Source: Escherichia phage RB14 | DNA: 64,000 bases | Sequence record: NC_012638.1 | Strand: one strand, 5' to 3' | Shown: piece after piece, positions 24,289 to 62,905 of the stretch | Layout of the letters: the number at the start of each line of letters is the position of its first letter | Numbering within the stretch: position 1 is the stretch's first letter | Notes under the pieces: model-generated | The model's database searches: none | What the model was told of the DNA's origin: nothing | Seen by the model: only the letters and a program-made list of their open reading frames with translations | Position numbers and translations under genes: made by a program

Positions 24289-24318
24289 ATAGTACCATGG
24301 AAGAACAGGGATGTAAAC
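24289..24318 (-). promoter_or_regulatory. early promoter of a PeSL-like cassette (GTTTAC - 18 nt - TACTAT) with conserved leader
   Basis: plus atagta 24289-24294, gtaaac 24313-24318; leader ACAACTATCAACTAC...GGAGA-ATG is shared with three other cassettes. Confidence 0.55.
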
Positions 24319-24406
24319 CGTTTTGTGAAAAAATTTTTAATGAATTCTAGAGGTCCAGAATCATCTATTTTTCCTAAGTATAGATTTATATTACTTGTAT
24401 GAAAAA

Positions 24407-24422
24407 GGGACCCGGAGGTCCC
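24407..24422 (-). terminator. terminator hairpin after gene 43
   Basis: gggacc-cgga-ggtccc inverted repeat just below the gene 43 stop. Confidence 0.6.
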
Positions 24423-27210: not shown

Positions 27211-27474
27211 TTAAATTAGTACTATTTGCCGGGTGAAAATTGTCAATCCATCTGCATTAATTGACTTAACGACTGCAGTAAAATGTTTTTGTTCTGGGTG
27301 AACTAATTTTTGAAATTCTACCTGAAATTTTAATTGGAGATTTTCTGGTAAATCAAAAAGTGTTTCTGTTGCAGAAAGATTATATTTTTCTTTAAGAGAC
27401 GCCATGTATTCTTGCGGAGTTATAGCAGTCATATTAATTACCAATCGTATATTTAGGAACGAGTTTCCATTCAT
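27211..27474 (-). CDS. hypothetical ORF between regA and gene 43, 73-87 aa
   Basis: ATG at 27472-27474, alternative at 27430-27432; no strong Shine-Dalgarno; I do not recall an equivalent gene in T4. Confidence 0.4.
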   Translation of the reverse strand: MNGNSFLNIRLVINMTAITPQEYMASLKEKYNLSATETLFDLPENLQLKFQVEFQKLVHPEQKHFTAVVKSINADGLTIFTRQIVLI

Positions 27475-30520: not shown

Positions 30521-30709
30521 TTAGTCATAATAATCAGTAACAGTCCAAGCTTCATTTCTATTGGACATTATTTTTGTATATTCTGCTTTAAATGCATTCC
30601 TAAGCATAGATTCAGTAACTATATGCTCTTCATTAGAAAAATTATTTCTCAGAATATATCGTTTTATTTCAGGAATAGTTAATAGATGTTGTCCAGTTGA
30701 ATATTCCAT
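30521..30709 (-). CDS. 45.2-position small protein, 62 aa
   Basis: ORF table. Confidence 0.5.
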   Translation of the reverse strand: MEYSTGQHLLTIPEIKRYILRNNFSNEEHIVTESMLRNAFKAEYTKIMSNRNEAWTVTDYYD

Positions 30710-30764
30710 GTTTTTCCTCCACAGAGATTATACTCTAATAAATTAAAGCATAATCTCTTATAAA

Positions 30765-32447
30765 TTAAACCATTACAGTAAATCGACCAACTTTCTTCAT
30801 TTGAAGGTGCTGACCATATGCTTGTGGGTCATGGTCTCTATGCGAAATAACAAAAACATTAGTATTTTTTAAACTATCTAAAATAGTTGAAATAGCTTTT
30901 ACACCTTCAACATCGGTCGCTGAATCAAAAACTTCATCAAGAATTAGTGTGTTTATTTTAACACCTGAAACTTTTTCAGCAATATCACGCCAAGTAAATA
31001 AAAGAGCAATATCAATTCGTGCTTTTTCACCTTGACTGAATGAAGCATAACTAAAATCTTCACGACCACGGGATTTAATTGTCTCATTAAATTCTTCATC
31101 TAATGTAAACACATAATCCGCTTCCATTATTTTAAGATAATGGTTAATCTGCTTATTAAATAATGGAATGTACTTTTTAATAATAGCACCTTTAATACCA
31201 GAATCTTTGAGCATATCAGTCAAAATTCCTCGGTGGTATTTTTCCATTACTAAATTAGTTTTTGTCTTAACAATTTTATCAAGTTCTTCTTGAAGCAGTG
31301 CTATTTCATCAGCATGGTCAATAAACTCAGAAGATGCTTTTTCTATAGCCGCTTTAACTTTTTTAGCTTTATCTACCGTCGTGATTAGAGATTGCTTTTT
31401 ATTGCGAATATCATTTGCCAACGACTGCTGGGTTTTAATATTATCTCGGTATTCATCAACAAGAACTTTTAAATTATCACGGTGTGTTGAAAGCTGTTCA
31501 AATGAATGCGTACATTCAGAAACTTTATCTTTAATTTTAGAAACAACTTTATCACCGGAACTTAATTGTGACAAACAGGTTGGACATAATCCACCTTCGT
31601 GATACATATTAATGACTTTATTATACGAGTCAATTTTTGATTTAATTAAAAATGCTTCTTGACCGATTTTATTAAATGCATCAGTCGGGTCTTCATCCAA
31701 AACAATATTAACTAATCTTTCATTAGCTTCTTCTATTTCCGATTTTAGCGTTCTAGCTTCTTTTGCCAAATCATCATACATATTTTGCAGACGAGTAAGA
31801 TTGTCACCCGTTAATTTTTTCTGGCGTTCAACGTTATCATTATATATTTTAATTTGTTGGATAATACTATCTTTTTTAACATCAAGCACTTGGTTTTGTG
31901 AATTTAATTCACGTATTAGTGCTTTATTAAGCTTATCCATTTCAGCTAATGTTCCTACCTCGAGCAGGTCTTCCACAAGCTTTCTTCGCGCAGGGGTCGA
32001 CAAACCCATGAAAGGGGTATACCCTGCTGTACCAAGGACAACAATCTGCTTGAAACTGGCATATGACATTCCGATAAGCTGTTCAAATTCTGCTTGGAAA
32101 TCTTTACTGCTGGCAGATTCATTAAGACGTGTACCGTTAACGGTGATTTCGAAAACGTTTGGTTTTTGTCCTCTTTTGATATAGTACTTTTTCTCATCAT
32201 ATTCCATCCACAGTTCAACTAAAAGTTCTTTCTTATTTGTGCTGTTTATTAATTGACCTTTCTTTACATCACGAAATGGCTTACCAAAAAGCCCAAATGT
32301 GATGGCTTCTAGCATAGTAGACTTACCACCGCCATTTCGTCCAGTAATAAGAGTTTTTTGAACCTTATCTAATTGAATGTCAATAGGATTTCCACCTACT
32401 GACATTATATTTTGATACCTAACTCGGTTTAGTTTAAAATTCTTCAC
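30765..32447 (-). CDS. 46: recombination nuclease subunit gp46 (SbcC/Rad50-like), 560 aa
   Basis: Walker A GRNGGGKS, long coiled-coil middle, CPTC zinc hook; 560 aa as T4. Confidence 0.9.
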   Translation of the reverse strand: MKNFKLNRVRYQNIMSVGGNPIDIQLDKVQKTLITGRNGGGKSTMLEAITFGLFGKPFRDVKKGQLINSTNKKELLVELWMEYDEKKYYIKRGQKPNVFEITVNGTRLNESASSKDFQAEFEQLIGMSYASFKQIVVLGTAGYTPFMGLSTPARRKLVEDLLEVGTLAEMDKLNKALIRELNSQNQVLDVKKDSIIQQIKIYNDNVERQKKLTGDNLTRLQNMYDDLAKEARTLKSEIEEANERLVNIVLDEDPTDAFNKIGQEAFLIKSKIDSYNKVINMYHEGGLCPTCLSQLSSGDKVVSKIKDKVSECTHSFEQLSTHRDNLKVLVDEYRDNIKTQQSLANDIRNKKQSLITTVDKAKKVKAAIEKASSEFIDHADEIALLQEELDKIVKTKTNLVMEKYHRGILTDMLKDSGIKGAIIKKYIPLFNKQINHYLKIMEADYVFTLDEEFNETIKSRGREDFSYASFSQGEKARIDIALLFTWRDIAEKVSGVKINTLILDEVFDSATDVEGVKAISTILDSLKNTNVFVISHRDHDPQAYGQHLQMKKVGRFTVMV

Positions 32448-36861: not shown

Positions 36862-37131
36862 TTATCTAAGTAAGCAGTATGCTTGGAACACTTTCTCCAT
36901 CATCTTTTTAAATTCATGAATATCTATATAATGACTAGTTAAATCAGCATGATATAAAAAGTCTAAAAACTTTTCATGTGTGCTAACATATTCACTTTCA
37001 TTTAATTCAGAAACATGACTTTCCCAATATCCAACACCAGTCTTATTTGGGAAAAATGAAATTTTCATGTATTGGTCAACATAGAAAATGCCATAATTTT
37101 CAATAGTAATAGAAATATTAATAAATTTCAT
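36862..37131 (-). CDS. hypothetical protein, 89 aa
   Basis: ORF table. Confidence 0.45.
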   Translation of the reverse strand: MKFINISITIENYGIFYVDQYMKISFFPNKTGVGYWESHVSELNESEYVSTHEKFLDFLYHADLTSHYIDIHEFKKMMEKVFQAYCLLR

Positions 37132-38532: not shown

Positions 38533-38690
38533 ATCAATTCCTCAAAGGCAATTCATATGTTAATAATACCACAGTTTGAACTTCTTGTAAACAACTTTGT
38601 GAAAATTATTTTAGGGAATGATAAGAAGGGAACGATAGCTTAGAATGGTAATATACAGAATGTGAAAAAGAAAGGCCCAGAGGGCCCGTC

Positions 38691-39014
38691 TTAGTCTTCT
38701 ATGATATCTCTATCATATCCAAGTGAAATGAGAGTTTCTTTGAAGTGTTTAATGTTCTTTTGTCTAGAATCATTAATGAAAATGACTGGATAACGAATGT
38801 TAAGAGATGTGAATCCAGCGCGTTTAGCAAGAGATACAATCAGCGGACGATCATACTCAATCTTACCGTTATTTGTAAGAACTTTATAGAAAGTAAAAGG
38901 AGCATTGAGCTCCTTTAGAAGTTTTGTAACTGATTGACATCCAGGACAACGACCTACTTCTTCGGGGATGCCATAGATTTCAATCTTATTCTTTAAGTTC
39001 GAGTTTTGTTCCAC
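38691..39014 (-). CDS. nrdH: glutaredoxin-like protein NrdH (CPGC active site), about 107 aa
   Basis: CPGC redox motif; AAGGA Shine-Dalgarno before GTG at 39012-39014; the longer table ORF overlaps the upstream gene. Confidence 0.6.
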   Translation of the reverse strand: MEQNSNLKNKIEIYGIPEEVGRCPGCQSVTKLLKELNAPFTFYKVLTNNGKIEYDRPLIVSLAKRAGFTSLNIRYPVIFINDSRQKNIKHFKETLISLGYDRDIIED

Positions 39015-39297
39015 GAGAAATAATTCCTTGATAAGCCCAGTATGGCGGGTTAACAGAATCCTCACCAGAGTTTTCTTCAGGAAAATAAACCTGGATAACG
39101 AAGCCGGATTCATCAAAGGTGAAATAAGTAGTAGGCAGTTCACCTAACAAATCGGCACGAGCGTTGATTTCTTCGAGGTCTTGTTCACGTCCAGCCCAGA
39201 AGCTTGGGTTCAGACTACATTCATAGAAATAATAGTCATTACCGAACATATCAAAACCATTCCAACTCTCTACTACATACCGCTCAAAACTAATCAT
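38986..39297 (-). CDS. hypothetical protein, 103 aa
   Basis: ORF table. Confidence 0.5.
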   Translation of the reverse strand: MISFERYVVESWNGFDMFGNDYYFYECSLNPSFWAGREQDLEEINARADLLGELPTTYFTFDESGFVIQVYFPEENSGEDSVNPPYWAYQGIISRGTKLELKE

Positions 39298-39299
39298 AA

Positions 39300-39515
39300 T
39301 TAAGCCTTTTTATCAAGAACAGCATTCAGCTTGTTAGTAATTTTATCCAGACGCTCATTAAACTCACTAGAAGATAAGCCCTTTTCTGGAGAAATTAAAC
39401 TAATCACGAAAAATATAGCAATAAAAGGAATAAGGAAAATAGCTCCAACTGCCATAAACAGAAAGAATGTTACAGTTGTAAGAAAATCAGCTAAACCTTT
39501 ACGAAATTTATACAT
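39300..39515 (-). CDS. small membrane protein, 71 aa
   Basis: one long hydrophobic segment. Confidence 0.5.
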   Translation of the reverse strand: MYKFRKGLADFLTTVTFFLFMAVGAIFLIPFIAIFFVISLISPEKGLSSSEFNERLDKITNKLNAVLDKKA

Positions 39516-46659: not shown

Positions 46660-46689
46660 ATTATACCACATCCTTGTGGTAAAGTAAAC
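46660..46689 (-). promoter_or_regulatory. early promoter, exact duplicate of the one at 2418-2447
   Basis: 32-bp identity attataccacatccttgtggtaaagtaaacta. Confidence 0.6.
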
Positions 46690-49075: not shown

Positions 49076-49603
49076 TTATGCGAGTACCGTCTTTAACCGT
49101 TCTTCAAACTTCCGAAGAGTATTTTGGCGTTCAGCTCTTTGCTTTTTGTAAGTTTCAATACGCTCTGAAATGAGAGTGTATCGTTCATTTACTGATTCTT
49201 TCATAAAATCAGGAATTTCACGAGAAGCTTTAATCTCGTCAAATTTATCAATAACAGCTTGCTCTTCAGCAATTAAGTTATCATACATCAAAATATCTTT
49301 CTTGATGAACTCAATATCTTCTTGAGTTACACGAGATAATTTAGATGCTTTATCCTTTTTGTACTGTTCGTTAGTATCACGAGACCAGTGTAATGTACGA
49401 TTTTTATTCGTATTCTTGTAAATTTCTACAATACCAATCTCATCGATAATAACGATCCAATTCCAACGGGATTTGTAAATTTGTCCTCCATCAACAGTGA
49501 TTTCACCTCCGATTGAGATGTCATTAAAGAACTTGCTTTGTGCTTCAGATTTAAATTTACCATCGTTGTAATTTACCAGGTTGAAAATATCTTTAGCGTT
49601 CAT
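49076..49603 (-). CDS. hypothetical protein, about 175 aa
   Basis: GGAGG Shine-Dalgarno before ATG at 49601-49603; the table ORF reads through the promoter leader. Confidence 0.5.
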   Translation of the reverse strand: MNAKDIFNLVNYNDGKFKSEAQSKFFNDISIGGEITVDGGQIYKSRWNWIVIIDEIGIVEIYKNTNKNRTLHWSRDTNEQYKKDKASKLSRVTQEDIEFIKKDILMYDNLIAEEQAVIDKFDEIKASREIPDFMKESVNERYTLISERIETYKKQRAERQNTLRKFEERLKTVLA

Positions 49604-49631
49604 TTTGTGTTCCTCCGTAGTTGATAGTTGT

Positions 49632-49661
49632 ATAGTACCACAGAGGAACGGTCTTGTAAAC
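49632..49661 (-). promoter_or_regulatory. early promoter with conserved leader
   Basis: plus atagta 49632-49637, gtaaac 49656-49661. Confidence 0.55.
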
Positions 49662-49978: not shown

Positions 49979-50048
49979 TTACCAGTTTAATTCTAGTCAT
50001 CTTTTTAATGGCAGTCCATATAATCTATTTCTGAACTGCCTTTTTGTC

Positions 50049-50768
50049 TTACGATTCTTCTAAATGTCTTTTCTGAAAAGTTGATACCATACTACGATAC
50101 GGTTCATTTGGATACCCATGTTTTATAGCTTCCTTTGTAAATTTTCTCCATCCATATTTAGTTTCTTTCCAAAGCTCGAATAATTCATCTTCATATTGCC
50201 ATATAGTTAAATGAGAACGCTTTGCAGCTTTAATTCCATTAATATGCTTTTCTTTTACTACAGGATTGCTTAGTTTCTTTTTAATAATATTACTAACTTT
50301 TCTAACAAAAACTGGGTCCTTATATCGTTGAGAAGTTTTTATTGAAGTGTTTAATTTAGCTTCCGGCGTGGATGTAACCTCTTTCATCTTTTTCTTCATA
50401 TGCTGTATATGATTAGGATTTTTCCATAAATTTATAGAATGCTTTTTGCATTTTATCCTAGTTTCATCTGCAACCTTTCCTCCTTCACCCCCGTATGACA
50501 GGTTAACACAGTTTTTTCCATATTTCAATTTACCTGCCATGATATATAATATTTCAGCTTGTACCATTTTATCATAATTATCAAAAACTTCTAAAACCGT
50601 TTTTGATAATATGTGGTCATTTGACACTTTTACACGTTCTATATAATTTCCACTACCAACATACGAATCATTGATGTTATTAGTTATATGTCGACCATAA
50701 TAGTATTTCTTAATACCTGTCTTTAAATTTAATATTTCAGTTTTATAGATAGTAAAATATTTTTTCAT
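50049..50768 (-). mobile_element. free-standing GIY-YIG homing endonuclease (Seg-like), 239 aa
   Basis: N-terminal TIY...YYG-R module (FTIYKTEILNLKTGIKKYYYGRH) and basic C-terminal half; start overlaps the upstream gene stop. Confidence 0.6.
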
Positions 50769-51745
50769 TTTAATAATACCGTTTCAGCAATTTCTTCCCA
50801 ATGATTTTTGTCGGTCATAATAAAGTCAGCAAGATAAAGAGCAGTACGCAGTGAAACATTGCGTAAACGATTAACATTGACTTTCATCCATGATAATGCT
50901 TTATAAGTTTCTTCATCAGAAAGACCGCGCTTTTGCATCATGTCGGTTGAAAGAATAACATCTTCAACCCTGACCATAATTTCTTCATTAGTGTGAACAC
51001 CCAAATCCAAATAAACTGAGCGGGACACTAATGCTTGTAAATGTGGAGCAAGTTTAGTACCACGGTCTAATTCGCGGTCAATGTCAACGTTTGTGATAAA
51101 AACAATCGTTCCTTTAAATTCAAACTCACGCTCAATGCCTTTTTCTTCTAAGTAAGAAGATGCAGTGCTCCAGCAGACTTTACGGGTCTCTCCAGTGTCC
51201 AGAGCAGCTTTTAGAAGATTAAGAATGTCCATATCAGAGAAAACATCCACATCATCAATCAAAAGGACAGAATTCTCTTCACGATTATTCCAAAGCTGTT
51301 CATAAAGACCGATACCAGAGATTTTACCATTAATGCTTTTATATTCAATGTATCCAATATCATTTGCTTTATTTAAAGCTTTATCCAAAGAATACGTTTT
51401 ACCAATACCTGCTGCTCCCGAGATAATTAATGAACGAATGTTTCCGTTAATAATACCATTCGTCATCATTCCCATAACATTAAATCTTTTATTAATGCGG
51501 GTTTTCATATCTTCATATGATTCTTTAACTTCTTCAACTTTTACGCCATCATATGAAATGTCTGATTTGTAAACCCAAACACCGCGACGTTTACCGTCAA
51601 TTTCAACAAAAACTTTACCATCTCCTTGTGCATCTACCGGAGCATTATCCGGGAACCATTCGCCTAAGAGCTCAAAAGTTCCAGAGATTTCTTTACCGAA
51701 GTAGATACCCTTATTGATAGTTACAGTTTTCATTTTATTCTCCAA
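50765..51745 (-). CDS. AAA+ ATPase, 326 aa
   Basis: Walker A GAAGIGKT and Walker B LLIDDVD, preceded by a roughly 100-aa N-terminal domain. Confidence 0.65.
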   Translation of the reverse strand: MENKMKTVTINKGIYFGKEISGTFELLGEWFPDNAPVDAQGDGKVFVEIDGKRRGVWVYKSDISYDGVKVEEVKESYEDMKTRINKRFNVMGMMTNGIINGNIRSLIISGAAGIGKTYSLDKALNKANDIGYIEYKSINGKISGIGLYEQLWNNREENSVLLIDDVDVFSDMDILNLLKAALDTGETRKVCWSTASSYLEEKGIEREFEFKGTIVFITNVDIDRELDRGTKLAPHLQALVSRSVYLDLGVHTNEEIMVRVEDVILSTDMMQKRGLSDEETYKALSWMKVNVNRLRNVSLRTALYLADFIMTDKNHWEEIAETVLLK

Positions 51746-51767
51746 ATCCGTATCAGTTGATAGTTGT

Positions 51768-51797
51768 ATAGTACCATAAAGCTTTATGCTTGTAAAC
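51768..51797 (-). promoter_or_regulatory. early promoter of a PeSL-like cassette
   Basis: plus atagta 51768-51773, gtaaac 51792-51797; conserved leader to the AAA+ ATPase start. Confidence 0.55.
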
Positions 51798-51826
51798 CGT
51801 TTTGTGAAAAATTTTTGAAATAAAAA

Positions 51827-51846
51827 AGGGAGCCCGAAGGCTCCCT
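51827..51846 (-). terminator. rho-independent terminator (UUCG hairpin plus U-run)
   Basis: agggagcc-cgaa-ggctccct with plus A-run 51822-51827. Confidence 0.65.
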
Positions 51847-51847
51847 A

Positions 51848-52861
51848 TCATTTATAATAACTTCGATGGTTTTTAAGATAGACCTTCTCAAGGAAGTCAT
51901 CCCAGAAACCCATGTCTACTTTTTGCTGCATACCGTTCTTAGAAGCTTCAATAGATGCTGCTTCTACTTGATCGACCACATCTTCCAAAAACTCTTGAAC
52001 GGTTTTAAATGGATGTTTACCCAACTTCACGTCGAGAATAAATGGAGCATCTTGGAGTGGATAAACCAAGTCACCAGTTTTGTAAATTTCCAATAGTTGG
52101 AGTCCACCACGACAAGCATGACTCAAAGCTTTCCAGTCAATGCCTTCATTGGCTTCGGCCTTACGGGCACGTTCACCATATTCAGCATCTAATTTGTTCA
52201 GTGACTGCTTAAGCTCAATAAGAGAAAGCGTCGTCTGATATTTACGACCCAACACAGTGTAGAACGTTTGTGGGCCTGTTTTCTCATGATTATGGAACAC
52301 CCATTCACAGAATTCGTTTTCTGGAAGACGATGCTTAATATCTTCAACTTTAGTGCGACGCTGCTTAATAGAACCATCTTCTTGGTAATCAACCCATTGC
52401 TCAGGGATTTGATTAACTACTTTCAATACATCACGTAATGCAGCCAAACGAGAACCCTTGACACCGTATTTAGAAGCTTGCTTGCGGACATATCCTAAAT
52501 ATGATTTCATGTTAGTCGTATAAAAACGAGAACGGTTGTCTTGAATAAACTTCCACACATCAGGCAAATCAGATTTAACCACTAGTTCAGGTGGAGTGTG
52601 AAGCATATCTAATGCTACGGTTTCACCATCTGCTGCTAATTTAAAGAAATATTTAAGACTGTATAGTTCATGGTCAATATCATCTTTAGTGTTTTTAGAT
52701 GATGTGTTGTTGGTATTTTTACTCATATGCTCTTTAACATTTCCGATAAGAATATCACGAGCAGGAGGAACAAAGATTTCTTTAAAATCTACATCAGATT
52801 CTGGAGTAGAAGTTCCATAAAGATGACTACCAAAATAGCTTTTCATTACTGTTTTCATCAT
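51848..52861 (-). CDS. pol-beta superfamily nucleotidyltransferase-like protein, 337 aa
   Basis: N-terminal motif FGSHLYGTSTPESDVDF (GS-x9-DxD) followed by a helical domain. Confidence 0.6.
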   Translation of the reverse strand: MMKTVMKSYFGSHLYGTSTPESDVDFKEIFVPPARDILIGNVKEHMSKNTNNTSSKNTKDDIDHELYSLKYFFKLAADGETVALDMLHTPPELVVKSDLPDVWKFIQDNRSRFYTTNMKSYLGYVRKQASKYGVKGSRLAALRDVLKVVNQIPEQWVDYQEDGSIKQRRTKVEDIKHRLPENEFCEWVFHNHEKTGPQTFYTVLGRKYQTTLSLIELKQSLNKLDAEYGERARKAEANEGIDWKALSHACRGGLQLLEIYKTGDLVYPLQDAPFILDVKLGKHPFKTVQEFLEDVVDQVEAASIEASKNGMQQKVDMGFWDDFLEKVYLKNHRSYYK

Positions 52862-53319
52862 TCAGCCTTATATTCAATAACAGGACATACTTTAGCTTTA
52901 CGAGCTTTTAAAAATTCAACGATAACCGATTTCTTGGGTTGAATAGGAGGTAAACCTTTATACGCCCTATCAATATTTTCTACGTGTAAAGCATAATCCT
53001 TTTTCCATTTATAATCTTTATATTTTTCACGCAAATGTGCAGGAATAACAAATGAACCGATAATAAGTAAAACAACCAAAAGCGCAAGTATAAATGCTGA
53101 TGGAAGCAAAGTCCATAAACTACCGAAAATAAGCCAACGTTGTAGGCTTTCTACACAAATAATTGTTAGCCCTACGAGTATAGCACATCCAAAAATAGAA
53201 ACGAAAAATGTAGGAATGGCAATAGACCAAAAATATGCGCATAGTGTCTTAGGTCGTTGCCATTCATCGTTAAACAATTTGAATAATTTATAATGCCAAG
53301 AGTTTTCATTAATAATCAT
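52858..53319 (-). CDS. membrane protein, 153 aa
   Basis: three predicted transmembrane segments; stop overlaps the nucleotidyltransferase start. Confidence 0.55.
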   Translation of the reverse strand: MIINENSWHYKLFKLFNDEWQRPKTLCAYFWSIAIPTFFVSIFGCAILVGLTIICVESLQRWLIFGSLWTLLPSAFILALLVVLLIIGSFVIPAHLREKYKDYKWKKDYALHVENIDRAYKGLPPIQPKKSVIVEFLKARKAKVCPVIEYKAE

Positions 53320-53321
53320 AA

Positions 53322-53843
53322 TTATCCTTTCATTGAAGGCGTAACGGTTGTTAAATACTTAATCATAGCTTCAGCTTCTGATTTTGATAATGAAATTTCT
53401 CCATTGTTTTGACGAATAGAAATAAAATCTGGATGACGGTCACCACCAGCTTTTAAAACACACATATAAGTATCAACTTCGCCTTCAATATTTGAAATGA
53501 TTGAAGCAGTTCCACATGAATGTGGTTTTTGATAAATCAATACAGCTTTTCTTCCACCGTTTGACTGTTCATAGGCTTTTAATACATCAAGCAAATCAGT
53601 TCTTTTATCAATAGCTAAAATGTTATTTTCATCTTCAATGTTAAATCCTTCGGATACTTCATAAAGTGTTACCCATAAATCACCAATGTCAATAACAGCA
53701 TTTACGTTTCCACGGCTTTCAAGAGTATGACAAATTTTCTTGATTTCGTCATAACTCATTTTAATAATATCATCTCCTTGAATAAGAAAGATGTCATTTT
53801 TAAATTCAACACGAATTAAACCACTTCCACTTGAAATAAACAT
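53322..53843 (-). CDS. hypothetical protein with GFNIE motif, 173 aa
   Basis: GAGGAAA Shine-Dalgarno; paralogous to 53999..54382. Confidence 0.5.
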   Translation of the reverse strand: MFISSGSGLIRVEFKNDIFLIQGDDIIKMSYDEIKKICHTLESRGNVNAVIDIGDLWVTLYEVSEGFNIEDENNILAIDKRTDLLDVLKAYEQSNGGRKAVLIYQKPHSCGTASIISNIEGEVDTYMCVLKAGGDRHPDFISIRQNNGEISLSKSEAEAMIKYLTTVTPSMKG

Positions 53844-53849
53844 ATTTCC

Positions 53850-53990
53850 TCACTTTGAAATCATAGTTGGAATGACAGAATCAAGATAAGTCTTTAGTGC
53901 AATAGCTTCGTCTTTGGTAAATGTGACAATATGCGCTCGAAAATCATCAATTTGACGAATAGTTAAGACATCTCCATCTTCATAACATTT
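53850..53990 (-). pseudogene. start-less remnant of a GFNIE-family paralogue, about 45 codons
   Basis: open frame (…YEDGDVLTIRQIDDFRAHIVTFTKDEAIALKTYLDSVIPTMISK) with no start codon, resembling the N-terminal region of the neighbours. Confidence 0.3.
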
Positions 53991-53998
53991 TGATACGT

Positions 53999-54382
53999 TT
54001 AAACAGTTTCATCATTCTGATCGCAAGCGTTAGTAATAATAGCATTGCAATTTTTAAGCCATTTTAAACTATGTTTTCTTTCATTAGAATAATAAAAATA
54101 TTTAATCTTAGTTATAAAATTATCCCAATTATTAATTGATAAGCATATTGACTCGCTTTCAATATTAAATCCTGGGCATAAAGAATAAAAATGAATTTTA
54201 TGCTCATCATTAATGCTTACAATTTTATCAGTATAAGGATTTTCAATTTTGGTTAAATGAATGATTTCACTAGGCGTAAAATACAGCATATCGTCTTCTT
54301 GTGTCAAACGATACATATTATTTACTTTTTCTATAGCCAATTCACCAAAAAGTGAACTAACTTCTAATACTAATCGTTTCAT
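53999..54382 (-). CDS. hypothetical protein with GFNIE motif, about 127 aa
   Basis: paralogue of 53322..53843 (CPGFNIESE versus SEGFNIEDE). Confidence 0.5.
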   Translation of the reverse strand: MKRLVLEVSSLFGELAIEKVNNMYRLTQEDDMLYFTPSEIIHLTKIENPYTDKIVSINDEHKIHFYSLCPGFNIESESICLSINNWDNFITKIKYFYYSNERKHSLKWLKNCNAIITNACDQNDETV

Positions 54383-54383
54383 A

Positions 54384-54662
54384 TTAATCCTTTTTAATGG
54401 CATGAATTTGTTCTAAAATTTTAGAGTATTCCTTTATATCAGATTTACGTACAATCGATACACTATAAGGCATACTATCGGTGTCTTTTATAAAGCGTTC
54501 CAAATGACACTCTAACAAAATTTCTGGATTATAAATCGTGTACATCAAATTACCTGTTGCTCCACGATATTGACAGATTTCTACTGATTGAGCATCATTC
54601 CACAATTTTGTTAAGACTAAATCACCTACTTCTAATTTAGGAAAGCCCATGTTATTCACCAA
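54384..54662 (-). CDS. hypothetical protein, 92 aa
   Basis: ORF table. Confidence 0.5.
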   Translation of the reverse strand: MVNNMGFPKLEVGDLVLTKLWNDAQSVEICQYRGATGNLMYTIYNPEILLECHLERFIKDTDSMPYSVSIVRKSDIKEYSKILEQIHAIKKD

Positions 54663-54840
54663 TTAAAGTTTCAATATAAGAATCAAGATTTACTTTAGCT
54701 TCTTCCATAAGAGTTTTGTATTTAATCTTGTTAGCATGTCCGGAGAAAGCTAATTCATCAATAACTGTTGCTGTATGAACAGCTTTGCTATATGTTTCAA
54801 TTAATTCTCTTAATTTAAAAGCCTGCTCACTTGTCATCAC
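54652..54840 (-). CDS. small helical protein family member, 62 aa
   Basis: N-terminus MMTSEQAFKLRELI fits the family pattern. Confidence 0.5.
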   Translation of the reverse strand: MMTSEQAFKLRELIETYSKAVHTATVIDELAFSGHANKIKYKTLMEEAKVNLDSYIETLIGE

Positions 54841-55001
54841 ATACTCCTCTGAATCATATCAATAATGTTATTCACCAGATTATAGGTAAACAAAGGATAA
54901 TTATATTGAATCATCACATACACAACAAACAAAACTTTCATTCTCTTCTCCTTGGCAGTTGACAAGATTACTATACCATAACCTTGCCAACTTGTAAACC
55001 A

Positions 55002-55175
55002 TTAAATGACGTTTTCGATAAAATTCTGAAGCTTTGTATGAGCATCAACCATGATTTTCATTTCTTCTTTGGCGAAAGCTGTACCTCTTTCCCGAGAAGA
55101 ACATTCATAGTCAGAAACTGCGTTAGCATATTCTTCAATTAGTTTCATTAAAAACATCTGCTTTTCAGTTTTCAT
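55002..55175 (-). CDS. small helical protein family member, 57 aa (not in ORF table)
   Basis: my translation MKTEKQMFLMKLIEEYANAVSDYE... Confidence 0.4.
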   Translation of the reverse strand: MKTEKQMFLMKLIEEYANAVSDYECSSRERGTAFAKEEMKIMVDAHTKLQNFIENVI

Positions 55176-55359
55176 TATTCCACCTAATCATTTCAAGATA
55201 TTGAACTAGCTTAGCTTTAGATTTATCCAAATCCTTTTTAGCTGCTTCTATACCGTCGTATGAATATCCTTCACAATGCTCAACTGCTAATTGATATGAA
55301 TCTATTTCAATATCACGTGCTAATTTAATGATTTTTTCAAACTGTTCGCGTGTTAGCAT
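55165..55359 (-). CDS. small helical protein family member, 64 aa
   Basis: N-terminus MLTREQFEKIIKL. Confidence 0.5.
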   Translation of the reverse strand: MLTREQFEKIIKLARDIEIDSYQLAVEHCEGYSYDGIEAAKKDLDKSKAKLVQYLEMIRWNNEN

Positions 55360-55361
55360 AC

Positions 55362-55565
55362 TTACACTCTCGTATTATGATCGATAATTTCATCAAGAAA
55401 CATATCTAACGCTTCTATAGCATTATCCACTTTAGTTTCAAAGTCTTTAATGCCTTTATTCGAAATACCCGATGAATACCAAGCAAAGTCAATCAGCTCT
55501 TCATCTGCTTTGCGAATTGAAGCCACTAATTCCTTGATTTTATCCGCTTGCTCTACACTAACCAT
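55362..55565 (-). CDS. small helical protein family member, about 68 aa
   Basis: internal start [13 protein letters not shown] fits the family. Confidence 0.45.
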   Translation of the reverse strand: MVSVEQADKIKELVASIRKADEELIDFAWYSSGISNKGIKDFETKVDNAIEALDMFLDEIIDHNTRV

Positions 55566-55753
55566 TATTCCACCACATATGAAAGAGAGAATATTGCACA
55601 CGCCATATGAGTTGCAACTTCATCACACATATTATAACGTTTCTTAAGAAGTTCTACAAGTTCTTCACTGGTAACTTCATCCATGTCGACGAAAAAATCA
55701 CCATTAATGATGACGTAGATATTTCCTTCTTGATTAAGTGCTTCAATTTTCAT
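55565..55753 (-). CDS. small protein, 62 aa
   Basis: AAGAGGAG Shine-Dalgarno 6 nt before ATG at 55751-55753, downstream of a PeSL promoter. Confidence 0.5.
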
Positions 55754-55781
55754 GATGTTCTCCTCTTTATCCGATGGTTGT

Positions 55782-55811
55782 ATAGTACCACGGCTCAAAC
55801 GAAAAGTAAAC
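55782..55811 (-). promoter_or_regulatory. early promoter of a PeSL-like cassette
   Basis: plus atagta 55782-55787, gtaaac 55806-55811. Confidence 0.55.
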
Positions 55812-55826
55812 CGGTAAAATGAAAAA

Positions 55827-55844
55827 AGTCTCCCGAAGGAGACT
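55827..55844 (-). terminator. rho-independent terminator (UUCG hairpin plus U-run)
   Basis: agtctcc-cgaa-ggagact with plus A-run 55821-55826. Confidence 0.65.
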
Positions 55845-55848
55845 AATG

Positions 55849-56235
55849 CTATTCGAGGGAAAGAAGATATTTACTTTGGTAAAACATTCCAGTAATATCA
55901 TCTATCGTGCTTTGGATGGCTGGAGGCATTTCTTTATAAATGCTGTTAGATTGGTCTAGTATGCGATCAATCATTTTAATTGTGTCGGTAGGAAGTTTAC
56001 TGGCATCTGGAATTGAAGGCGTGTATTTTCTACCAGAATACCCCAAATATTGCTCACCAAATTTATCAATCAAATCTGGCAACTCGGAGAAAATAAAATC
56101 GTATGCTTTGTGTCTAGCATAACTTTTAGTTTCAAAATGTGCAGAATGAAAATAAGCTTGTGCAGCCATTAATAAACCTAAGTATTCATCTGCCTTTGAA
56201 GGTTTTCCACTTTGTGAAAAGTCGCTGAATTTCAT
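55849..56235 (-). CDS. protein downstream of rI (rI.1 position), 128 aa
   Basis: ORF table; position adjacent to rI. Confidence 0.55.
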
Positions 56236-56525
56236 TCAGTCTCCAATTTAATGTTCATAATTCTAGCGTATGATTGTGCCATCTCCGCGCCTCGTTCTAT
56301 ACATTCAAAATCAGAAGAGCACGGGTCATTTTTATAGGTCGTTCTCATAAAACTATAGAATTGTTCAGACGATTCTACGCTTTTATTTTCAAAAAGTGTA
56401 TAAACGTGCCTAATACCAGATTCCATAAATTTATCAAAATGAGGATCGACATTCGCTTCAATCGATGGAGATAAAACAAATGACAATCCTAGCATGGCAA
56501 AAAGTGCCGTTGCTTTTAAGGCCAT
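56232..56525 (-). CDS. rI: lysis-inhibition regulator RI, 97 aa
   Basis: signal-anchor N-terminus and sequence match T4 RI as I recall. Confidence 0.9.
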   Translation of the reverse strand: MALKATALFAMLGLSFVLSPSIEANVDPHFDKFMESGIRHVYTLFENKSVESSEQFYSFMRTTYKNDPCSSDFECIERGAEMAQSYARIMNIKLETE

Positions 56526-56537
56526 AAAGGCCTCCTA

Positions 56538-56750
56538 TCATTTTTGTCCTGTATTTACTTTATGCCGATGCACGGCCTTAACTTTATCAAGGTATTTTTC
56601 AAAATTTCGCAATCTAGTATAGTCTGCCGGAGATTGGTTGAGCGATACTTCTCGACGCAAAGCTGAAATGATATTTCCAACTTCCCTACGAATTTCATCT
56701 AATTGAAGCACAGTAAGATTGCGAAGTTGCTTTTCAGTTAATTGTAGCAT
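56538..56750 (-). CDS. protein upstream of rI (rI.-1 position), 70 aa
   Basis: ORF table. Confidence 0.5.
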
Positions 56751-56792
56751 ATATACCCCTTTAGTTAGATAAACCTATTTATAACTTTTGCA

Positions 56793-57374
56793 CTAACCGA
56801 GCTTTTTAGTTAATTCATTCCAATGTTTTCTACACAAAGAAACATAAATTTCATCACCAATACAGATTTGATTACCTTCTTTAACTGGTGTTCCATCTTC
56901 CATTAATCGAGCTGTCATAATCGCTTTTTTACCGCAATGACAAACTGCTTTTAGTTCAATAAGTTTATCTGCAATCGCTAAAAGTTCTTTAGAACCTTCA
57001 AACAATTTTCCAGCGAAATCAGTCCTTAATCCATAAGCCATAACAGGAACATTATATGTATCAACAATTCGGCTCAATTGATGCACTTGTTCAGTTTTTA
57101 AAAACTGAGCTTCATCTACAAATACGCAATGAATATCTTTTTGTGCTTCAGCCCATTTATAGAACTCGAAAATATCCATATCATCTGTAATAATATTCGC
57201 TTCCTGCTTAATTCCAATGCGAGAAACAACTTCACAGACAGAATCGCGAGTATCAATAGCAGGCTTAAGAACTAATACACTCATTCCACGTTCTTTATAA
57301 TTATGTGCAGCAGTCAAAAGAGAAGCAGATTTTCCAGCATTCATTGCTGCATAAGTAAAAATTAAACTCGCCAT
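56793..57374 (-). CDS. tk: thymidine kinase, 193 aa
   Basis: Walker A MNAGKS and zinc-ribbon CHCGKK; 193 aa as T4. Confidence 0.9.
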   Translation of the reverse strand: MASLIFTYAAMNAGKSASLLTAAHNYKERGMSVLVLKPAIDTRDSVCEVVSRIGIKQEANIITDDMDIFEFYKWAEAQKDIHCVFVDEAQFLKTEQVHQLSRIVDTYNVPVMAYGLRTDFAGKLFEGSKELLAIADKLIELKAVCHCGKKAIMTARLMEDGTPVKEGNQICIGDEIYVSLCRKHWNELTKKLG

Positions 57375-57375
57375 T

Positions 57376-57564
57376 TTAGTCCTTAGTTAAATTTTCTAAA
57401 TATGTTTCTAAATCATTTTCAGCTTTATCGATAGATTTTACTAATTCGTAATATGTTTCGGCATCTCCATAATCAGAAGATAATTCAAAAGACAAATCCT
57501 TTTCTAAACTAATAATTTCACCAACTAAAAATAATATTTCGTTCTTTTGTTCGCGAGTAATCAT
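57376..57564 (-). CDS. small helical protein family member, 62 aa
   Basis: N-terminus MITREQKNEILFLV. Confidence 0.5.
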   Translation of the reverse strand: MITREQKNEILFLVGEIISLEKDLSFELSSDYGDAETYYELVKSIDKAENDLETYLENLTKD

Positions 57565-57746
57565 AAAGAATTTATATAATCAATGAGTTCTTGTTCTTTA
57601 TTATCGAATTCTTTAGAAAGTTCTTCGTATTCATTTGCATTAAAAGGACCGCATTCATCACAAACTTTTTCCAATTCACTGTTTTTATCCATAACTTCGT
57701 GGATAAGAGAAAAGAGTTTGTCTTTTTGTTCTTTGCTTAAACTCAT
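57561..57746 (-). CDS. small helical protein family member, 61 aa
   Basis: N-terminus MSLSKEQKDKLFSLI. Confidence 0.5.
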   Translation of the reverse strand: MSLSKEQKDKLFSLIHEVMDKNSELEKVCDECGPFNANEYEELSKEFDNKEQELIDYINSL

Positions 57747-57916
57747 ATATTAATTTCCAAAAGTTTTAAAATAATTCGCTTTTGCTTAAATATTTCCACA
57801 GTTAAATGATCAGTATCTTTTTGACCAATTCCAATGGCAAAACCTTTATTAACAGCGAGTTCAATTAAATTATCAAGTTCACGTAACACTTCATATTGTA
57901 ACTCAGAACTATTCAT
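57743..57916 (-). CDS. small protein, 57 aa (not in ORF table)
   Basis: my translation MNSSELQYEVLRELDNLIELAVNKGF...; ATGA overlaps at both ends. Confidence 0.4.
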   Translation of the reverse strand: MNSSELQYEVLRELDNLIELAVNKGFAIGIGQKDTDHLTVEIFKQKRIILKLLEINI

Positions 57917-58125
57917 TTCGGTTTACCTTCTTTAACGAAATCTGGATAAGGATAAAATCCCGAATAAAATCCTTCACCTTTATGATTGATACATCCTTTA
58001 TTAGAACAATAGCACCAATAATCGAAATCACAAGCCATTTCATCGTTGCATAAAGCAAAAACAACCGGCCATTTACACTTTTCACAGTGGGCATTTTTAA
58101 GAATACTAGTTTGGCTCATAACCAT
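57913..58125 (-). CDS. Cys-rich small protein, 70 aa
   Basis: about ten cysteines including CEKCKW and CYCSNKGC. Confidence 0.5.
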   Translation of the reverse strand: MVMSQTSILKNAHCEKCKWPVVFALCNDEMACDFDYWCYCSNKGCINHKGEGFYSGFYPYPDFVKEGKPK

Positions 58126-59681: not shown

Positions 59682-60143
59682 TCATTGAGTTTTAATTACT
59701 GCTTTAGAAGCCTTTCCTGGTAAACGACGACTGTTGATAATTGCCATCCTACATTGAAGTGACGGGTCTTTGAACTTCTCATTAGGTTTACAAACCGTAA
59801 ATCCAAGCCAAAGATTTCCATCTGTGATTTCTAAACGTCCAGGACGATATTCAACCCCATCAATAAAATCCTCGTCAATGTCAGGACGCGGAGGCATACT
59901 CAGAAATTCATTAACTTCTAAAACATGGTCTTTTATTTTATGGAATAATTCAAAAACGTATGTCTCATCAATCTCCCGTTGAATTGCGCGATCAAGAAGA
60001 TGCTGAGAATATTTTAGATGAAACGATGAGACCCCTGCTGCTTTTGATGCCTCACGAATCTCATTGTTAATTTGACGAAACTCCGACTCAAAGTGACGAC
60101 GAAGCTTATTTCGACGGATAAAAACTTCTGTATTGATAGTCAT
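59682..60143 (-). CDS. regB: RegB endoribonuclease, 153 aa
   Basis: 153 aa as T4 RegB; position between the tk and e regions. Confidence 0.85.
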   Translation of the reverse strand: MTINTEVFIRRNKLRRHFESEFRQINNEIREASKAAGVSSFHLKYSQHLLDRAIQREIDETYVFELFHKIKDHVLEVNEFLSMPPRPDIDEDFIDGVEYRPGRLEITDGNLWLGFTVCKPNEKFKDPSLQCRMAIINSRRLPGKASKAVIKTQ

Positions 60144-60202
60144 GTTATTCTCCTCTTAACTGATAGAAAAATTATACCACAGTCAAGAGGAAAAGTAAAC
60201 AG

Positions 60203-60523
60203 TTATTCTTTAAATCTAATCAATTTATTCATAGACTTTGAAACTTCTGCACGAACCTCATGTAAGTTTTTAAGCTGTTCAAGACGCTGCTCATAGTAAG
60301 CAATTTCATCTTCTTCGAGACAGTCCTGTGAATCTTCTTTAAGATAACGTGCATAGTCCTGAAAAGCTTTACGGACTACTTCCTGGAAGTCATCAAGACT
60401 TTGAATTTTCTTAGGAGCGGCAGATACACGACGAGGTGCAGTATAATACTCATAACCAAACCCTGCACTTAATTGAGCCATTAGTATTTTTCCTCTGGTT
60501 GGAACACTGCACGACAAGCCCAC
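60203..60523 (-). CDS. hypothetical helical protein, 92-106 aa
   Basis: ORF table; probable start at the internal Met ([13 protein letters not shown]...). Confidence 0.5.
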
Positions 60524-60783
60524 ATACTGGCTTCTTTGAGTTTCGTTTTAGCAATAGTTAACTGATCGAGGCTTTCAGCATAATTCTTCGCGAGTTCATC
60601 ATCTTCACAGCTATCGAATGCTTCCCAGAATTCATCGTATAAAGCATCAAAGATAAGTCCTAAACGAACTTCAGCGTCTTTGATAGCATTCACTTTACCG
60701 ATTTTCTCTTCAGTATGCGGCTTATAACCTTTAATGTCTTCAATCATATTTGACTTCCTCACCAGTACATAAATCATATTCAA
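60481..60783 (-). CDS. hypothetical protein, up to 100 aa
   Basis: ORF table; start uncertain. Confidence 0.45.
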
Positions 60784-60961
60784 CTAAACGAATAGGTTCA
60801 TGAATGCCATATCCTTGAACAGAAATTTCTGTCGTAGGATAAATTCCATCAATATCACCCATATTCCAGGCTTCATTAAATTGCTGTTCGCCTGAATTAC
60901 TAAACCACTCGGCGAAAGCATTTAGCACATCTTTAGAACCTTCAATAATTATCTTTGCCAT
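60740..60961 (-). CDS. hypothetical protein, 73 aa
   Basis: ORF table. Confidence 0.45.
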   Translation of the reverse strand: MAKIIIEGSKDVLNAFAEWFSNSGEQQFNEAWNMGDIDGIYPTTEISVQGYGIHEPIRLVEYDLCTGEEVKYD

Positions 60962-61323
60962 TACAAACTCTCAGTAAAGGTACGAGCGATAACGTCGCGC
61001 TGCTGTTCCGGAGTCAGAGAGTTAAAGCGAACTGCATAACCGGATACACGGATGGTCAGCTGCGGATATTTTTCCGGATGCTTAACTGCATCTTCCAGAG
61101 TTTCACGACGCAGAACGTTAACGTTCAGGTGTTGACCACCTTCAATTTTAACTGTAGGTTGTTGCTCAATTTCAATTTCACGGGCATGCAAACCATAGAA
61201 AATTTCTGGGTCTACAAAAGAGTCCTCTTTAAAGGTTTTAGAGACAATAATTCGTGCTTGAATATCATCTTCAAAATAAATAGTACCTTTATGTGTGCCT
61301 TCAAGAATTTGATATGCTTTCAT
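60961..61323 (-). CDS. autonomous glycyl-radical cofactor (GrcA/YfiD-like), 120 aa
   Basis: C-terminal 60-65 aa including the RVSGYAVRF glycyl-radical motif identical to E. coli GrcA as I recall; the 3' 190 bp are GC-rich with host-like codons. Confidence 0.75.
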
Positions 61324-61330
61324 ATAAACC

Positions 61331-61660
61331 TCAATTAGAAAATAAATTTATCCAAGATTGTTCTTTAATTAAAAATGGCTCAGAATCATATGCCATTAAA
61401 CTTTGGGTGATTAGTCCTTTAAAAGGTCCATCAATAAATTCCATGGTAAAATATGGAATTTTATTCATTAGCCGTGCATTAGGAGCAGTACACAAAACTC
61501 TGCATCCTTTGAATACGCCTTTTTGTAATTTGTATTGCTTGGGATAAAATTCGCTTAAAATGTTGTTATTTGCCAAAATTTCAAAATGATTTACCAATTT
61601 ATTTTTAATAGTTTTTGGCGAAAAATAGAGATATTCGAAAAGCTGCGTGTCTGTCATCAT
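61331..61660 (-). CDS. hypothetical protein, 109 aa, translationally coupled to the upstream P-loop gene
   Basis: ATGATG start overlaps the upstream TGA stop. Confidence 0.5.
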
Positions 61661-62244
61661 TGCATTCCGATTACGAAAAACTGCGGACGAGTAATACCAC
61701 CAATGCAACATTTACTATTACAGCAGTAGTGTACAGTGTCAATATGGACGCTATAAATCTTATCCATATCAGGAGATTTGACAGGCTCATCAATTATATA
61801 CAAAATTCGCGAAAGCGATAAACCTCTGAACTTGCTTCCTTTATTACCAATAAAACTGCGCACAGAATCAGTAAATAAACGAAAACGTATATCATCATTA
61901 GAATAACGCGAAAATTCCTTTTTAATGTTATTTGCAGAAATTTTAGCGTAAGCTGAAGTATTAGAAAGAACAATAACTGTTCCGCCATCATACAGCCAAT
62001 TAGCGGCAAAGTTAGTCACAGCAATTGATTTACCGGATTGACGTCCACCATCTATACGAAGTGTGCAGTACTGTTTAAGTAATTCTTCAAATGGCGGGAT
62101 ATATTCGTTTTTACAAATTTCTTCTACTCTAGCATCAGAATGGTGTGTAAAAGCATTCATCAGGGATAGATAAGGACCAGTTAAAAATGTTCTCATTTTA
62201 TTCTCTCTAAATTTGGGCCATTCCATGGCGCATGAATTGTCCAT
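61657..62244 (-). CDS. small P-loop NTPase, about 179-195 aa
   Basis: Walker A GGRQSGKS and Walker B-like ILYIIDEP. Confidence 0.5.
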   Translation of the reverse strand: MDNSCAMEWPKFRENKMRTFLTGPYLSLMNAFTHHSDARVEEICKNEYIPPFEELLKQYCTLRIDGGRQSGKSIAVTNFAANWLYDGGTVIVLSNTSAYAKISANNIKKEFSRYSNDDIRFRLFTDSVRSFIGNKGSKFRGLSLSRILYIIDEPVKSPDMDKIYSVHIDTVHYCCNSKCCIGGITRPQFFVIGMQ

Positions 62245-62337
62245 TTCTGTATTTACCCATTACCGCACTCAGGCTCGACCTTATTACAGGTTGGCGGGAA
62301 TCCCTCATAGAATCATGAGGTCCAGGTTGTTCCCATA

Positions 62338-62811
62338 TTATTTGAACGATTTAACGTACTGAATAGAACCTTTACTATTCACAAAGGCAATTTTACCATT
62401 TTTGTTATACATGGTAGCAGTACGTTGATAGCCATAAGTTTGTTTACCAGATTGATAACCAACTAATGCAAAATTATCTTCACCCATTTTATTCTGTTTA
62501 GCACGAATGCGTTCATGGCCATGTGCCATAAGAACCTTAGCATCACCTGTTGCAATGGATCGACGAGTTTTTTCATCTTCAACTGTATTAACAAAGTCGT
62601 CAAATGAATCAAATTTAGCATGAGATTTATTATACAGTTTTCCATCTACTGCATAATTATATCCTTGTACATCCATCTCAACTTCTGTACCATCATCCAA
62701 TACAGCAGTGATTTTCTGTCCTTTTTTAAATTTCAAAAGATCAGTAAAAGATTCAGCAATAATTTGAGAATTAATAGCTGCTTCAGTAATAAATTCTTGA
62801 TATGTTTTCAT
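62338..62811 (-). CDS. capsid internal protein with capsid-targeting sequence, 157 aa
   Basis: N-terminus MKTYQEFITEAA matches the T4 internal-protein targeting sequence; locus next to e as for ipII/ipIII. Confidence 0.65.
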   Translation of the reverse strand: MKTYQEFITEAAINSQIIAESFTDLLKFKKGQKITAVLDDGTEVEMDVQGYNYAVDGKLYNKSHAKFDSFDDFVNTVEDEKTRRSIATGDAKVLMAHGHERIRAKQNKMGEDNFALVGYQSGKQTYGYQRTATMYNKNGKIAFVNSKGSIQYVKSFK

Positions 62812-62905
62812 GTGTATCCTTTAAATGTAAATATTTTAATTAATAATTTATCTCTTCAAATAACTGTGAATATACTATCACAATTCTAGGAGAAAGTAAA
62901 TAACT

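Follow-up and report, generated by a model that had tools for sequence, protein, structure and literature searches.

Repeated units in a T4-like phage genome are very probably immediate-early promoters, some preceded by putative intrinsic terminators

The DNA analysed here (hereafter "the window") comprises the first 64 kb of a Tequatrovirus (T4/T6-like) genome, matched by megablast to more than 500 Tequatrovirus records at 95-98% identity. In the same type of search, T6 aligned to positions 50000-58000 over their full length at 97.5% identity, and positions 1-25000, beginning at rIIA, were ~96% identical to several T4-like phages. Genes in the window are read from the minus strand, matching their orientation in the T4 reference. 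For comparison, we used the equivalent 64-70 kb of each of T4, T6, NIC06P2, LF73P1, ES26, and ESh34, plus a piece of Shinka. On T4-based coordinates, the main locus is the spacer between rI.-1 and mobD.5. Its hairpin has a 7-bp stem (dG -10.3 kcal/mol), with the -35 element of the adjacent promoter beginning 16 nt downstream:

55821-55844, minus strand: intrinsic-terminator hairpin AGTCTCC-TTCG-GGAGACT (55827-55844) and T-run, 3' of the rI.-1 homologue (DUF5856 by Pfam)
55782-55811, minus strand: predicted early promoter, with -35 GTTTAC (55806-55811), 15-nt spacer, and extended -10 TGGTACTAT (55782-55790)
55751-55781, minus strand: leader ACAACCATCGGATAAAGAGGAGAACATC, with GGAG Shine-Dalgarno (SD) sequence and the ATG of the mobD.5 homologue

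The original prediction had reported at least four such loci and a variant, and all five are present where it placed them, on the minus strand. However, the set is larger, i.e., 11 strong and about eight weaker sites. A strict pattern, GTTTAC-N13-17-TGGTAYWAT, matched nine times, each time on the minus strand, against an expectation of 0.00 from 100 shuffles; moreover, GGTACTATACAAC is present in four exact copies, with 0.76 expected even when two mismatches are tolerated. Chance was thus rejected as the origin of the units. With a looser -10, the strong sites (60200, 55811, 54999, 51797, 49661, 46689, 38592, 24318, 18840, 14944, and 2447) conform to GTTTAC-N15-TGGTAnnnT with invariant spacing and an exact GTTTAC in 11/11; the reading given by a promoter scan is TTTACA-17-TACTAT with a TG. 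A PWM derived from these 11 identified the weaker minus-strand sites (5941, 6531, 18337, 12845, 11509, 7636, 62901, and 33161), while the same scan of the plus strand returned no convincing site in the window. The resulting ~19 copies per 64 kb are crowded in the nrdC-mobD-tk-vs region. By T4 coordinates, P51797 occupies the nrdC.11/nrdC.10 spacer, P24318 the gene 43/imm.1 spacer, and P14944 the soc/mrh.2 spacer, with P60200 being the regB promoter and P49661 the predicted promoter of nrdC.8. The principal sites beyond the main locus are as follows:

51733-51846, minus strand: P51797 unit (nrdC.11/nrdC.10), with UUCG terminator (51827-51846), UP-like AAAAATTTTTCACAAAACG, -35 (51792-51797), extended -10 (51768-51776), leader ACAACTATCAACTGATACGGATTTGGAGAATAAA, and ATG at 51733
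49603-49661, minus strand: P49661, predicted to drive the nrdC.8 homologue, without upstream terminator; dG -20.8, z -4.25
24245-24422, minus strand: P24318, predicted to drive the imm.1-like DUF5481 lipoprotein gene, with UCCG hairpin (24407-24422), 89-nt gap, UP-like element, -35 (24313-24318), extended -10 (24289-24297), and a 43-nt leader in common with P5941
14888-14980, minus strand: P14944 (soc/mrh.2 spacer), with UUCG terminator (14959-14980), TTTTTTCATTTTACCG, -35 (14939-14944), TGGTATAAT (14915-14923), leader, and ATG at 14888
60141-60200, minus strand: regB early promoter (60171-60200), bisected by a hairpin with its 5' arm at 60180-60194 (spacer) and its 3' arm at 60148-60162 (leader, including SD GAGGAG), with ATG at 60141-60143; dG -23.1, z -3.84
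62872-62901, minus strand: P62901, at the IP locus 3' of gene e, a weaker early promoter with the sequence ATTTAC-N15-TGATAGTAT
5868-5965, minus strand: P5941 (motB/cef spacer), family B, with -35 ATATAC; dG -20.2, z -4.39
54941-54999, minus strand: P54999, predicted to drive mobD.2, family D, with the -10 between hairpin arms; dG -24.0, z -4.18
18781-18840, minus strand: P18840, predicted to drive dmd, family D, with the -10 between hairpin arms; dG -18.9, z -3.40
46660-46689, minus strand: P46689, predicted to drive nrdC.4, sharing 32 identical nt, TAGTTTACTTTACCACAAGGATGTGGTATAAT, with P2447
2418-2447, minus strand: P2447, predicted to drive rIIA.1, family C, partner of P46689
38563-38592, minus strand: P38592, predicted to drive the 55.6 homologue, with a terminator-like hairpin (38673-38687) 81 nt upstream

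Positional orthologues were found for all 12 sites examined in T4, T6, NIC06P2, LF73P1, ES26, and ESh34; the promoters are located 5' of early-expressed genes, are co-oriented with them, and are orthologous to T4 sites. Upstream of the -35, an A/T-rich, UP-like region reads AAAAATTTTT(T)CACAAAAC at 24318, 51797, 38592, and 5941, with TTTTTTCATTTTACC common to 14944 and 55811; it is weaker at the other promoters, where the coding end of the upstream gene fills the region. At the opposite end of the unit, a GGAG SD precedes 12/14 promoter-proximal genes compared to ~8/114 other genes, as counted over the minus-strand gene starts of the whole window. The RegB nuclease cleaves GGAG in early translation initiation regions (PMC3014915), and the clustering of this SD in genes directly behind an early promoter is consistent with RegB acting on promoter-proximal early mRNAs. 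Across the entire window, no Rfam family reached its gathering threshold.

Scanning the minus strand for a hairpin followed by a U-run yielded 10 sites, of which three lie 15-30 nt and two lie 81-89 nt upstream of a -35. The former are the adjacent UUCG terminators preceding 14944, 51797, and 55811, and the latter the distal hairpins at 24318 and 38592. The terminators have the features of Rho-independent termination sites, with a GC-rich stem, a short loop, dG values between -10 and -16 kcal/mol, and six or more T within 9 nt; at P14944, the stem GGACTCC/GGAGTCC is replaced by GGAATCC/GGATTCC in ES26 and LF73P1, i.e., a compensatory C-G to A-U double change. By terminator scan and folding, the stem-loop is absent at 46689, 2447, 18337, and 11509. 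Since only 3 of the ~19 promoters have an adjacent terminator, "cassette" does not describe the general architecture. This bears on the original claim that one and the same unit recurs at each reported locus, which holds for 51797 and 55811, where the full series of UUCG terminator, promoter, and ACAAC leader is present, but not for the remaining three loci: (i) at P14944, the UUCG hairpin is adjacent, yet the -10 reads TATAAT and the leader is of another type, (ii) P24318 has a UCCG rather than a UUCG hairpin, 89 nt upstream of its -35, and (iii) P49661 lacks an upstream terminator hairpin in the minus-strand hairpin-plus-U-run scan. The combination of TACTAT and the ACAAC leader is shared by 24318, 49661, 51797, and 55811 and is absent at 14944. 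Outside the genus, the region upstream of regB in Aeromonas phage Aes508 (Tulanevirus) carries a UUCG hairpin (GGGCTC-TTCG-GAGCCC), ATTTTCATTTTATG, and a -35-like GTGTAC; the family-A composite thus recurs in a distant genus.

We consider it very probable that the repeated units serve a T4-like phage as its immediate-early promoters (Pe), with a terminator upstream and a common leader at some of them. Host σ70 RNA polymerase would recognise them directly after infection. Each unit consists of an A/T-rich UP-like element, the -35 GTTTAC, 15 nt of spacer, the extended -10 TGGTAnnnT, and 20-40 nt of leader, at the 3' end of which a GGAG-type SD doubles as a RegB cleavage motif. At 14944, 51797, and 55811, a putative intrinsic terminator (GC stem, UUCG loop, U-run) is situated 15-30 nt upstream; as this is just ahead of the promoter, transcription of the previous unit would halt right before the new unit begins. 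Transcription start sites, terminator efficiency, and timing we infer from the sequence and from T4 orthology, with no genome-wide start-site data set for T4 found in the literature. P7636 is probably the well-studied T4 promoter P8.1, as we take it from the T4 coordinate of ~8.2 kb. The conserved leader motif ACAACTATCAAC counts against this explanation in that known RNA polymerase contacts do not account for it. As given, the finding serves mainly as a correct annotation of the early promoters of the window.

How the copies came to resemble each other beyond the promoter hexamers was approached via alignment, the check named in the original prediction. Similarity does extend past the hexamers, in patches of the leader and upstream region, but at the five original loci the spacer does not take part. 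Among the five original loci, mean pairwise identity in the leader (+1 to +30) is 0.55 versus a background of 0.28 (SD 0.08), upstream-region identity reaches 0.56-0.62 solely within the pairs 14944/55811 and 24318/51797, and identity in the 15-nt spacer is at the background level (0.31). Within the larger set, P18840 and P54999 have a spacer in common, while P5941 and P24318 have ~100 nt in common, including the entire leader. The copies form sub-families with different common patches, be it the upstream region, the spacer, or the leader. We suggest that this similarity mostly reflects functional constraint, to which occasional ectopic exchange between copies adds. A purely convergent origin, in which constraint on promoters and translation starts accounts for all similarity past the hexamers without any exchange, would agree with the spacer identity just given, with the resemblance of the upstream patch to a UP-element-like A/T pattern, and with the extra consensus regions known for T4 early promoters (Hinton 2010, PMC2988021). 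Nevertheless, we regard it as quite unlikely. Across phages, the P24318 leader alternates between two paralogous types (P5941-type in the window, P51797-type in T6 and ESh34) and its spacer between three, with the one in ESh34 resembling P49661. The family-B cassette of 103 nt occurs at 4223 places in 547 records, or ~8-9 copies per genome, with the best match often at another locus; for the P24318 cassette of the window, the best database match is often at another locus, e.8. Finally, the 32 nt of TAGTTTACTTTACCACAAGGATGTGGTATAAT that are identical between P2447 (2416-2447) and P46689 (46658-46689), 44 kb apart, span the unconstrained spacer. In the P46689 spacer, T4, T6, NIC06P2, LF73P1, and ESh34 have G where the window and ES26 have A; because the other five phages carry G, the window/ES26 allele, which equals that of P2447, looks converted to the P2447 copy.

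The original prediction also likened the units to PeSLs (promoter-early stem-loops), defined in RB49/phi1 as elements made up of an AT-rich region, a σ70-like early promoter, a stem-loop, and an SD with start codon (Arbiol 2010, PMC2839356). This match stands: the units have an early promoter, AT-rich sequence upstream, a nearby stem-loop, and an SD with start codon. PeSL is also the literature's name for a composite of terminator, promoter, and leader such as that at 51797 and 55811. The promoter and a stable stem-loop share one intergenic element (the latter adjacent, distal, or overlapping the promoter), the conserved element terminates in the SD and start codon of the downstream gene, and multiple conserved copies are present, preferentially in hyperplastic regions. 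PeSLs have been described for the T4/PST pair, with consensus TTTACW-N17-TAYWAT, as well as for nt-1/KVP40 (Comeau 2014, PMC4122927). Since that work covers T4/PST, the PeSL reading restates published work on the same genus, and the finding as given is correct but already known.

A further step is to regard the units as primarily mobile recombination linkers, conserved because they enable excision, insertion, and swapping of cassettes among T4-type phages. Individual events of this kind are readily observed, and mini-circles between PeSLs have been demonstrated experimentally in RB49/phi1 (PMC2839356). In T6, the regB-e spacer is a hybrid, like P62901 of the window 5' of the -35 and like the regB promoter P60200 from the -35 on; the crossover falls within (G/A)TTTACTTT, inside the -35, and the 2.7 kb between the two promoters (window 60202-62887) are missing. 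NIC06P2 has a 455-bp two-ORF cassette bounded by a P51797-type promoter and a second early promoter; insertions at the P51797 junction are found in ~9/30 sampled genomes (~30%). In three relatives, an ORF of 233 bp has been inserted into the P24318 leader at its SD/ATG, and in ES26 the P5941 leader precedes a gene unrelated to the small ORF found there in the window. That small ORF (5780-5868, in the motB/cef spacer) is itself a remnant, the NIC06P2 version being ~200 bp longer. As dispersed repeats, the copies sometimes act as crossover points for cassette gain or loss.

Conservation for the sake of shuffling is nonetheless doubtful in our estimation. Indels of at least 50 bp relative to the six relatives gave 60 distinct breakpoints, 45 of them at gene junctions, yet in this small panel of six genomes with crude gene calls, a breakpoint was found at 3/12 strong-promoter junctions versus 38/115 other junctions (one-sided Fisher p = 0.81); the result was the same with the weaker promoters included or with the comparison limited to spacers of at least 40 nt. 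Most indels fall instead at promoter-less stop/start overlaps or with homing-endonuclease genes. The main-locus junction is contiguous in 498/500 matching phage records, 12/12 promoters are positionally conserved across the panel, and the patches that are conserved fall on functional elements (UP, -35, TGn/-10, SD). Because promoter junctions are no richer in breakpoints and the main locus is contiguous, we conclude that recombination at the promoter repeats is real but, on present evidence, not preferential, with a modest enrichment conceivable; the evolutionary (shuffling) claim of the PeSL reading is weakly supported. Mapping of the junctions in related genomes, as originally proposed, thus bore out individual exchanges (T6, NIC06P2, P51797) without enrichment. 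The assertion that the units flank exactly the accessory genes did not hold up, given the junction counts and the fact that most flanked genes are widespread: T4, T6, and the majority of relatives have nrdC.10, nrdC.11, imm.1, and mobD.5. The labels given to the flanking genes (lipoprotein, AAA+ ATPase, nucleotidyltransferase) do agree with Pfam, in which the lipoprotein matched DUF5481, nrdC.10 gave a weak AAA-like match, and nrdC.11 was assigned to the RlaP family of nucleotidyltransferases. As the junction-level control lacks the indel enrichment implied by PeSL shuffling, that hypothesis merits a population-scale test.

Several rearrangements in these genomes are recorded here in their own right. 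Shinka (MZ502379; positions 2500-2560, equivalent to window 55780 and 51063), the one exception to contiguity at the main locus, lacks the block from C-terminal nrdC.10 to mobD.5, leaving a 101-codon 3' fragment of nrdC.10 behind a damaged mobD.5 promoter; as a PeSL event at the main locus, this breakpoint was rejected, the deletion running from the -10 into the nrdC.10 coding sequence. Three segments of 219-319 bp at the regA/43, 55/55.1, and nrdH/55.8 junctions (27215-27433, 36864-37116, and 38991-39309, respectively) are missing from T4 and T6, the first and third also from ESh34; none of the three adjoins an early promoter. At the start of the gene 45.2 homologue (30709), a very strong hairpin (window 30700-30775; dG -20.8, z -5.4) lies in a spacer that is an insertion site of ~750-830 bp in NIC06P2 and LF73P1, with a similar case in ESh34 near 30100. 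Lastly, a 239-aa ORF (50049-50768) between the nrdC.9 and nrdC.10 homologues is absent from T4, ES26, and Shinka and is annotated in T6 as a DNA endonuclease; it has no Pfam match and is probably a free-standing homing endonuclease.

Numerous early promoters in the window are themselves bisected by a hairpin. Folding of 78 nt around each of 16 promoters against dinucleotide shuffles revealed a strong hairpin at seven (regB, P49661, P54999, P18840, P5941, P6531, and P12845; z -3.1 to -4.4, dG -19 to -24 kcal/mol), with the -35/-10 spacer providing the 5' arm and the leader the 3' arm; P7636 is a further case (z -2.7). Their regions, given for the minus strand, are as follows:

60141-60200, minus strand: regB
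49603-49661, minus strand: P49661
54941-54999, minus strand: P54999
18781-18840, minus strand: P18840
5868-5943, minus strand: P5941
6456-6533, minus strand: P6531
12770-12847, minus strand: P12845
7561-7638, minus strand: P7636

A z of -3.1 or lower was reached by only 2/108 promoter-less gene starts compared to 7/16 promoters (Fisher p = 5e-6), with e, 49, and soc the top control gene starts. The 3' arm contains the SD at regB, P49661, P12845, and P7636 (genes regB, nrdC.8, modB, and motB.2), while the SD lies outside the helix in the family D promoters and at P5941. In P49661, the spacer GTTCCTCTGTGGT is complementary to the leader/SD ACTACGGAGGAAC, a complementarity that in its orthologues is made of different sequences; in P5941, the spacer ATCAGTAGTTGAT is the exact reverse complement of the leader ATCAACTACTGAT. 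A promoter-spanning hairpin was found for the regB orthologues in 9/9 lineages examined (z -3.2 to -5.9), with the SD held in the 3' arm in six genera or clades. Anchored in-register counting identified compensatory double changes at five helix positions in the three clades with in-register arms; RNAalifold on a MAFFT alignment of the nine regB upstream regions, in which the arms are out of register, predicted no pairs. Since several helices need G.U pairs, which exist on the sense RNA strand only, RNA structure is favoured and a DNA-level operator or cruciform is the less likely reading of these promoter-spanning inverted repeats.

The structures as such are already known, as they are annotated in the 1986 T4 record X04567.1, in which inverted repeats A-D at ipIII, ipII, denV, and regB have the -10 between the arms and the ribosome-binding site in the 3' arm (the regB hairpin being D/D'), and as they fit PeSL subclasses with the stem-loop between the boxes or over the -10 (Arbiol 2010, PMC2839356). 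As to what they do, two readings, each of which we would put forward tentatively at most, can be compared. In the one, many -35/-10 spacers of early promoters have been selected to pair with their own leader/SD, such that the ribosome-binding and RegB site would be hidden in the fold of read-through RNA from upstream units; RNA begun at the proximal promoter would be without the 5' arm, hence presumably open. Early genes could then be insulated by an anti-SD spacer in place of an upstream terminator, which in the case of regB would limit synthesis to the first minutes of infection. In the other, the hairpins at the seven promoters are terminators or attenuators of upstream transcription rather than masks against translation or RNase, as X04567.1 implies by labelling its repeats "pot. 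transcription terminator" and as was proposed for the PeSL subclasses, with a PeSL stem-loop acting as an effective terminator in a lacZ assay (Arbiol 2010, PMC2839356). Against this termination role, possible as it may be, are the lack of a U-run after these hairpins (0 in the hairpin-plus-U-run scan), the SD in the regB 3' arm across six genera or clades, and their distribution: bisected hairpins occur at 0/5 promoters with a terminator within 90 nt upstream and at 7/11 without (p = 0.029). Terminators and bisected hairpins thus look mutually exclusive, which, small as the numbers are, suggests two alternative insulations of the early gene. We found no description of the SD-masking reading, the cross-genus covariation, or the exclusivity with terminators in the literature; these may be undescribed so far. 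If true, a simple and testable rule would follow, i.e., early genes are insulated by either a terminator or an anti-SD spacer, with implications for the confinement of RegB and other early proteins to the first minutes of infection.

Among known systems, the units of the window differ in no essential respect from the early promoters of T4, which were described as combining GTTTAC (-36 to -31) with A-rich, UP-like sequence and, 5' of -12, a GT-rich stretch (Nolan 2006, PMC1524935), and were named "uber UP/-35/TGn/-10" with additional consensus regions (Hinton 2010, PMC2988021). Both sets share the GTTTAC -35, a conventional spacing of 17 nt, the TGn-extended -10, the UP-like region, and location 5' of early genes; the window has a few substitutions per promoter and another leader/spacer variant at P24318. 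With the PeSLs of RB49/phi1, T4/PST, and nt-1/KVP40, they share the composite structure, the multiple dispersed copies, and crossovers between the -35 and the ATG by which ORFs are lost or gained; every site in the window conforms to the T4/PST consensus. However, the RB49 stem-loop is mostly between or over the boxes, whereas the GC-rich UUCG terminators of the window are upstream of the promoter, and, in the window and six-genome panel, promoter junctions have no excess of indels over other gene junctions, in contrast to the preferential indel association published for PeSLs. The bisected hairpins, in turn, resemble those of T4 e, soc, 49, and I-TevI, in which late promoters bisect SD-sequestering hairpins such that the SD is masked on long transcripts (Uzan and Miller 2010, PMC3014915). 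In both groups, a promoter lies inside a hairpin, and long transcripts would fold while those begun at the internal promoter would lack the 5' arm; as in the T4 examples, the 3' arm holds the SD and/or AUG at regB, P49661, P12845, and P7636, with the 5' arm located upstream of the inferred internal start site. The internal promoter of the T4 examples is late (TATAAATA), whereas those of the window are of the early σ70 type with the -35/-10 spacer as 5' arm. The window hairpins would thus work like that class without being members of it and, the internal promoter being early, translation is predicted to be limited to the immediate-early rather than the late period.
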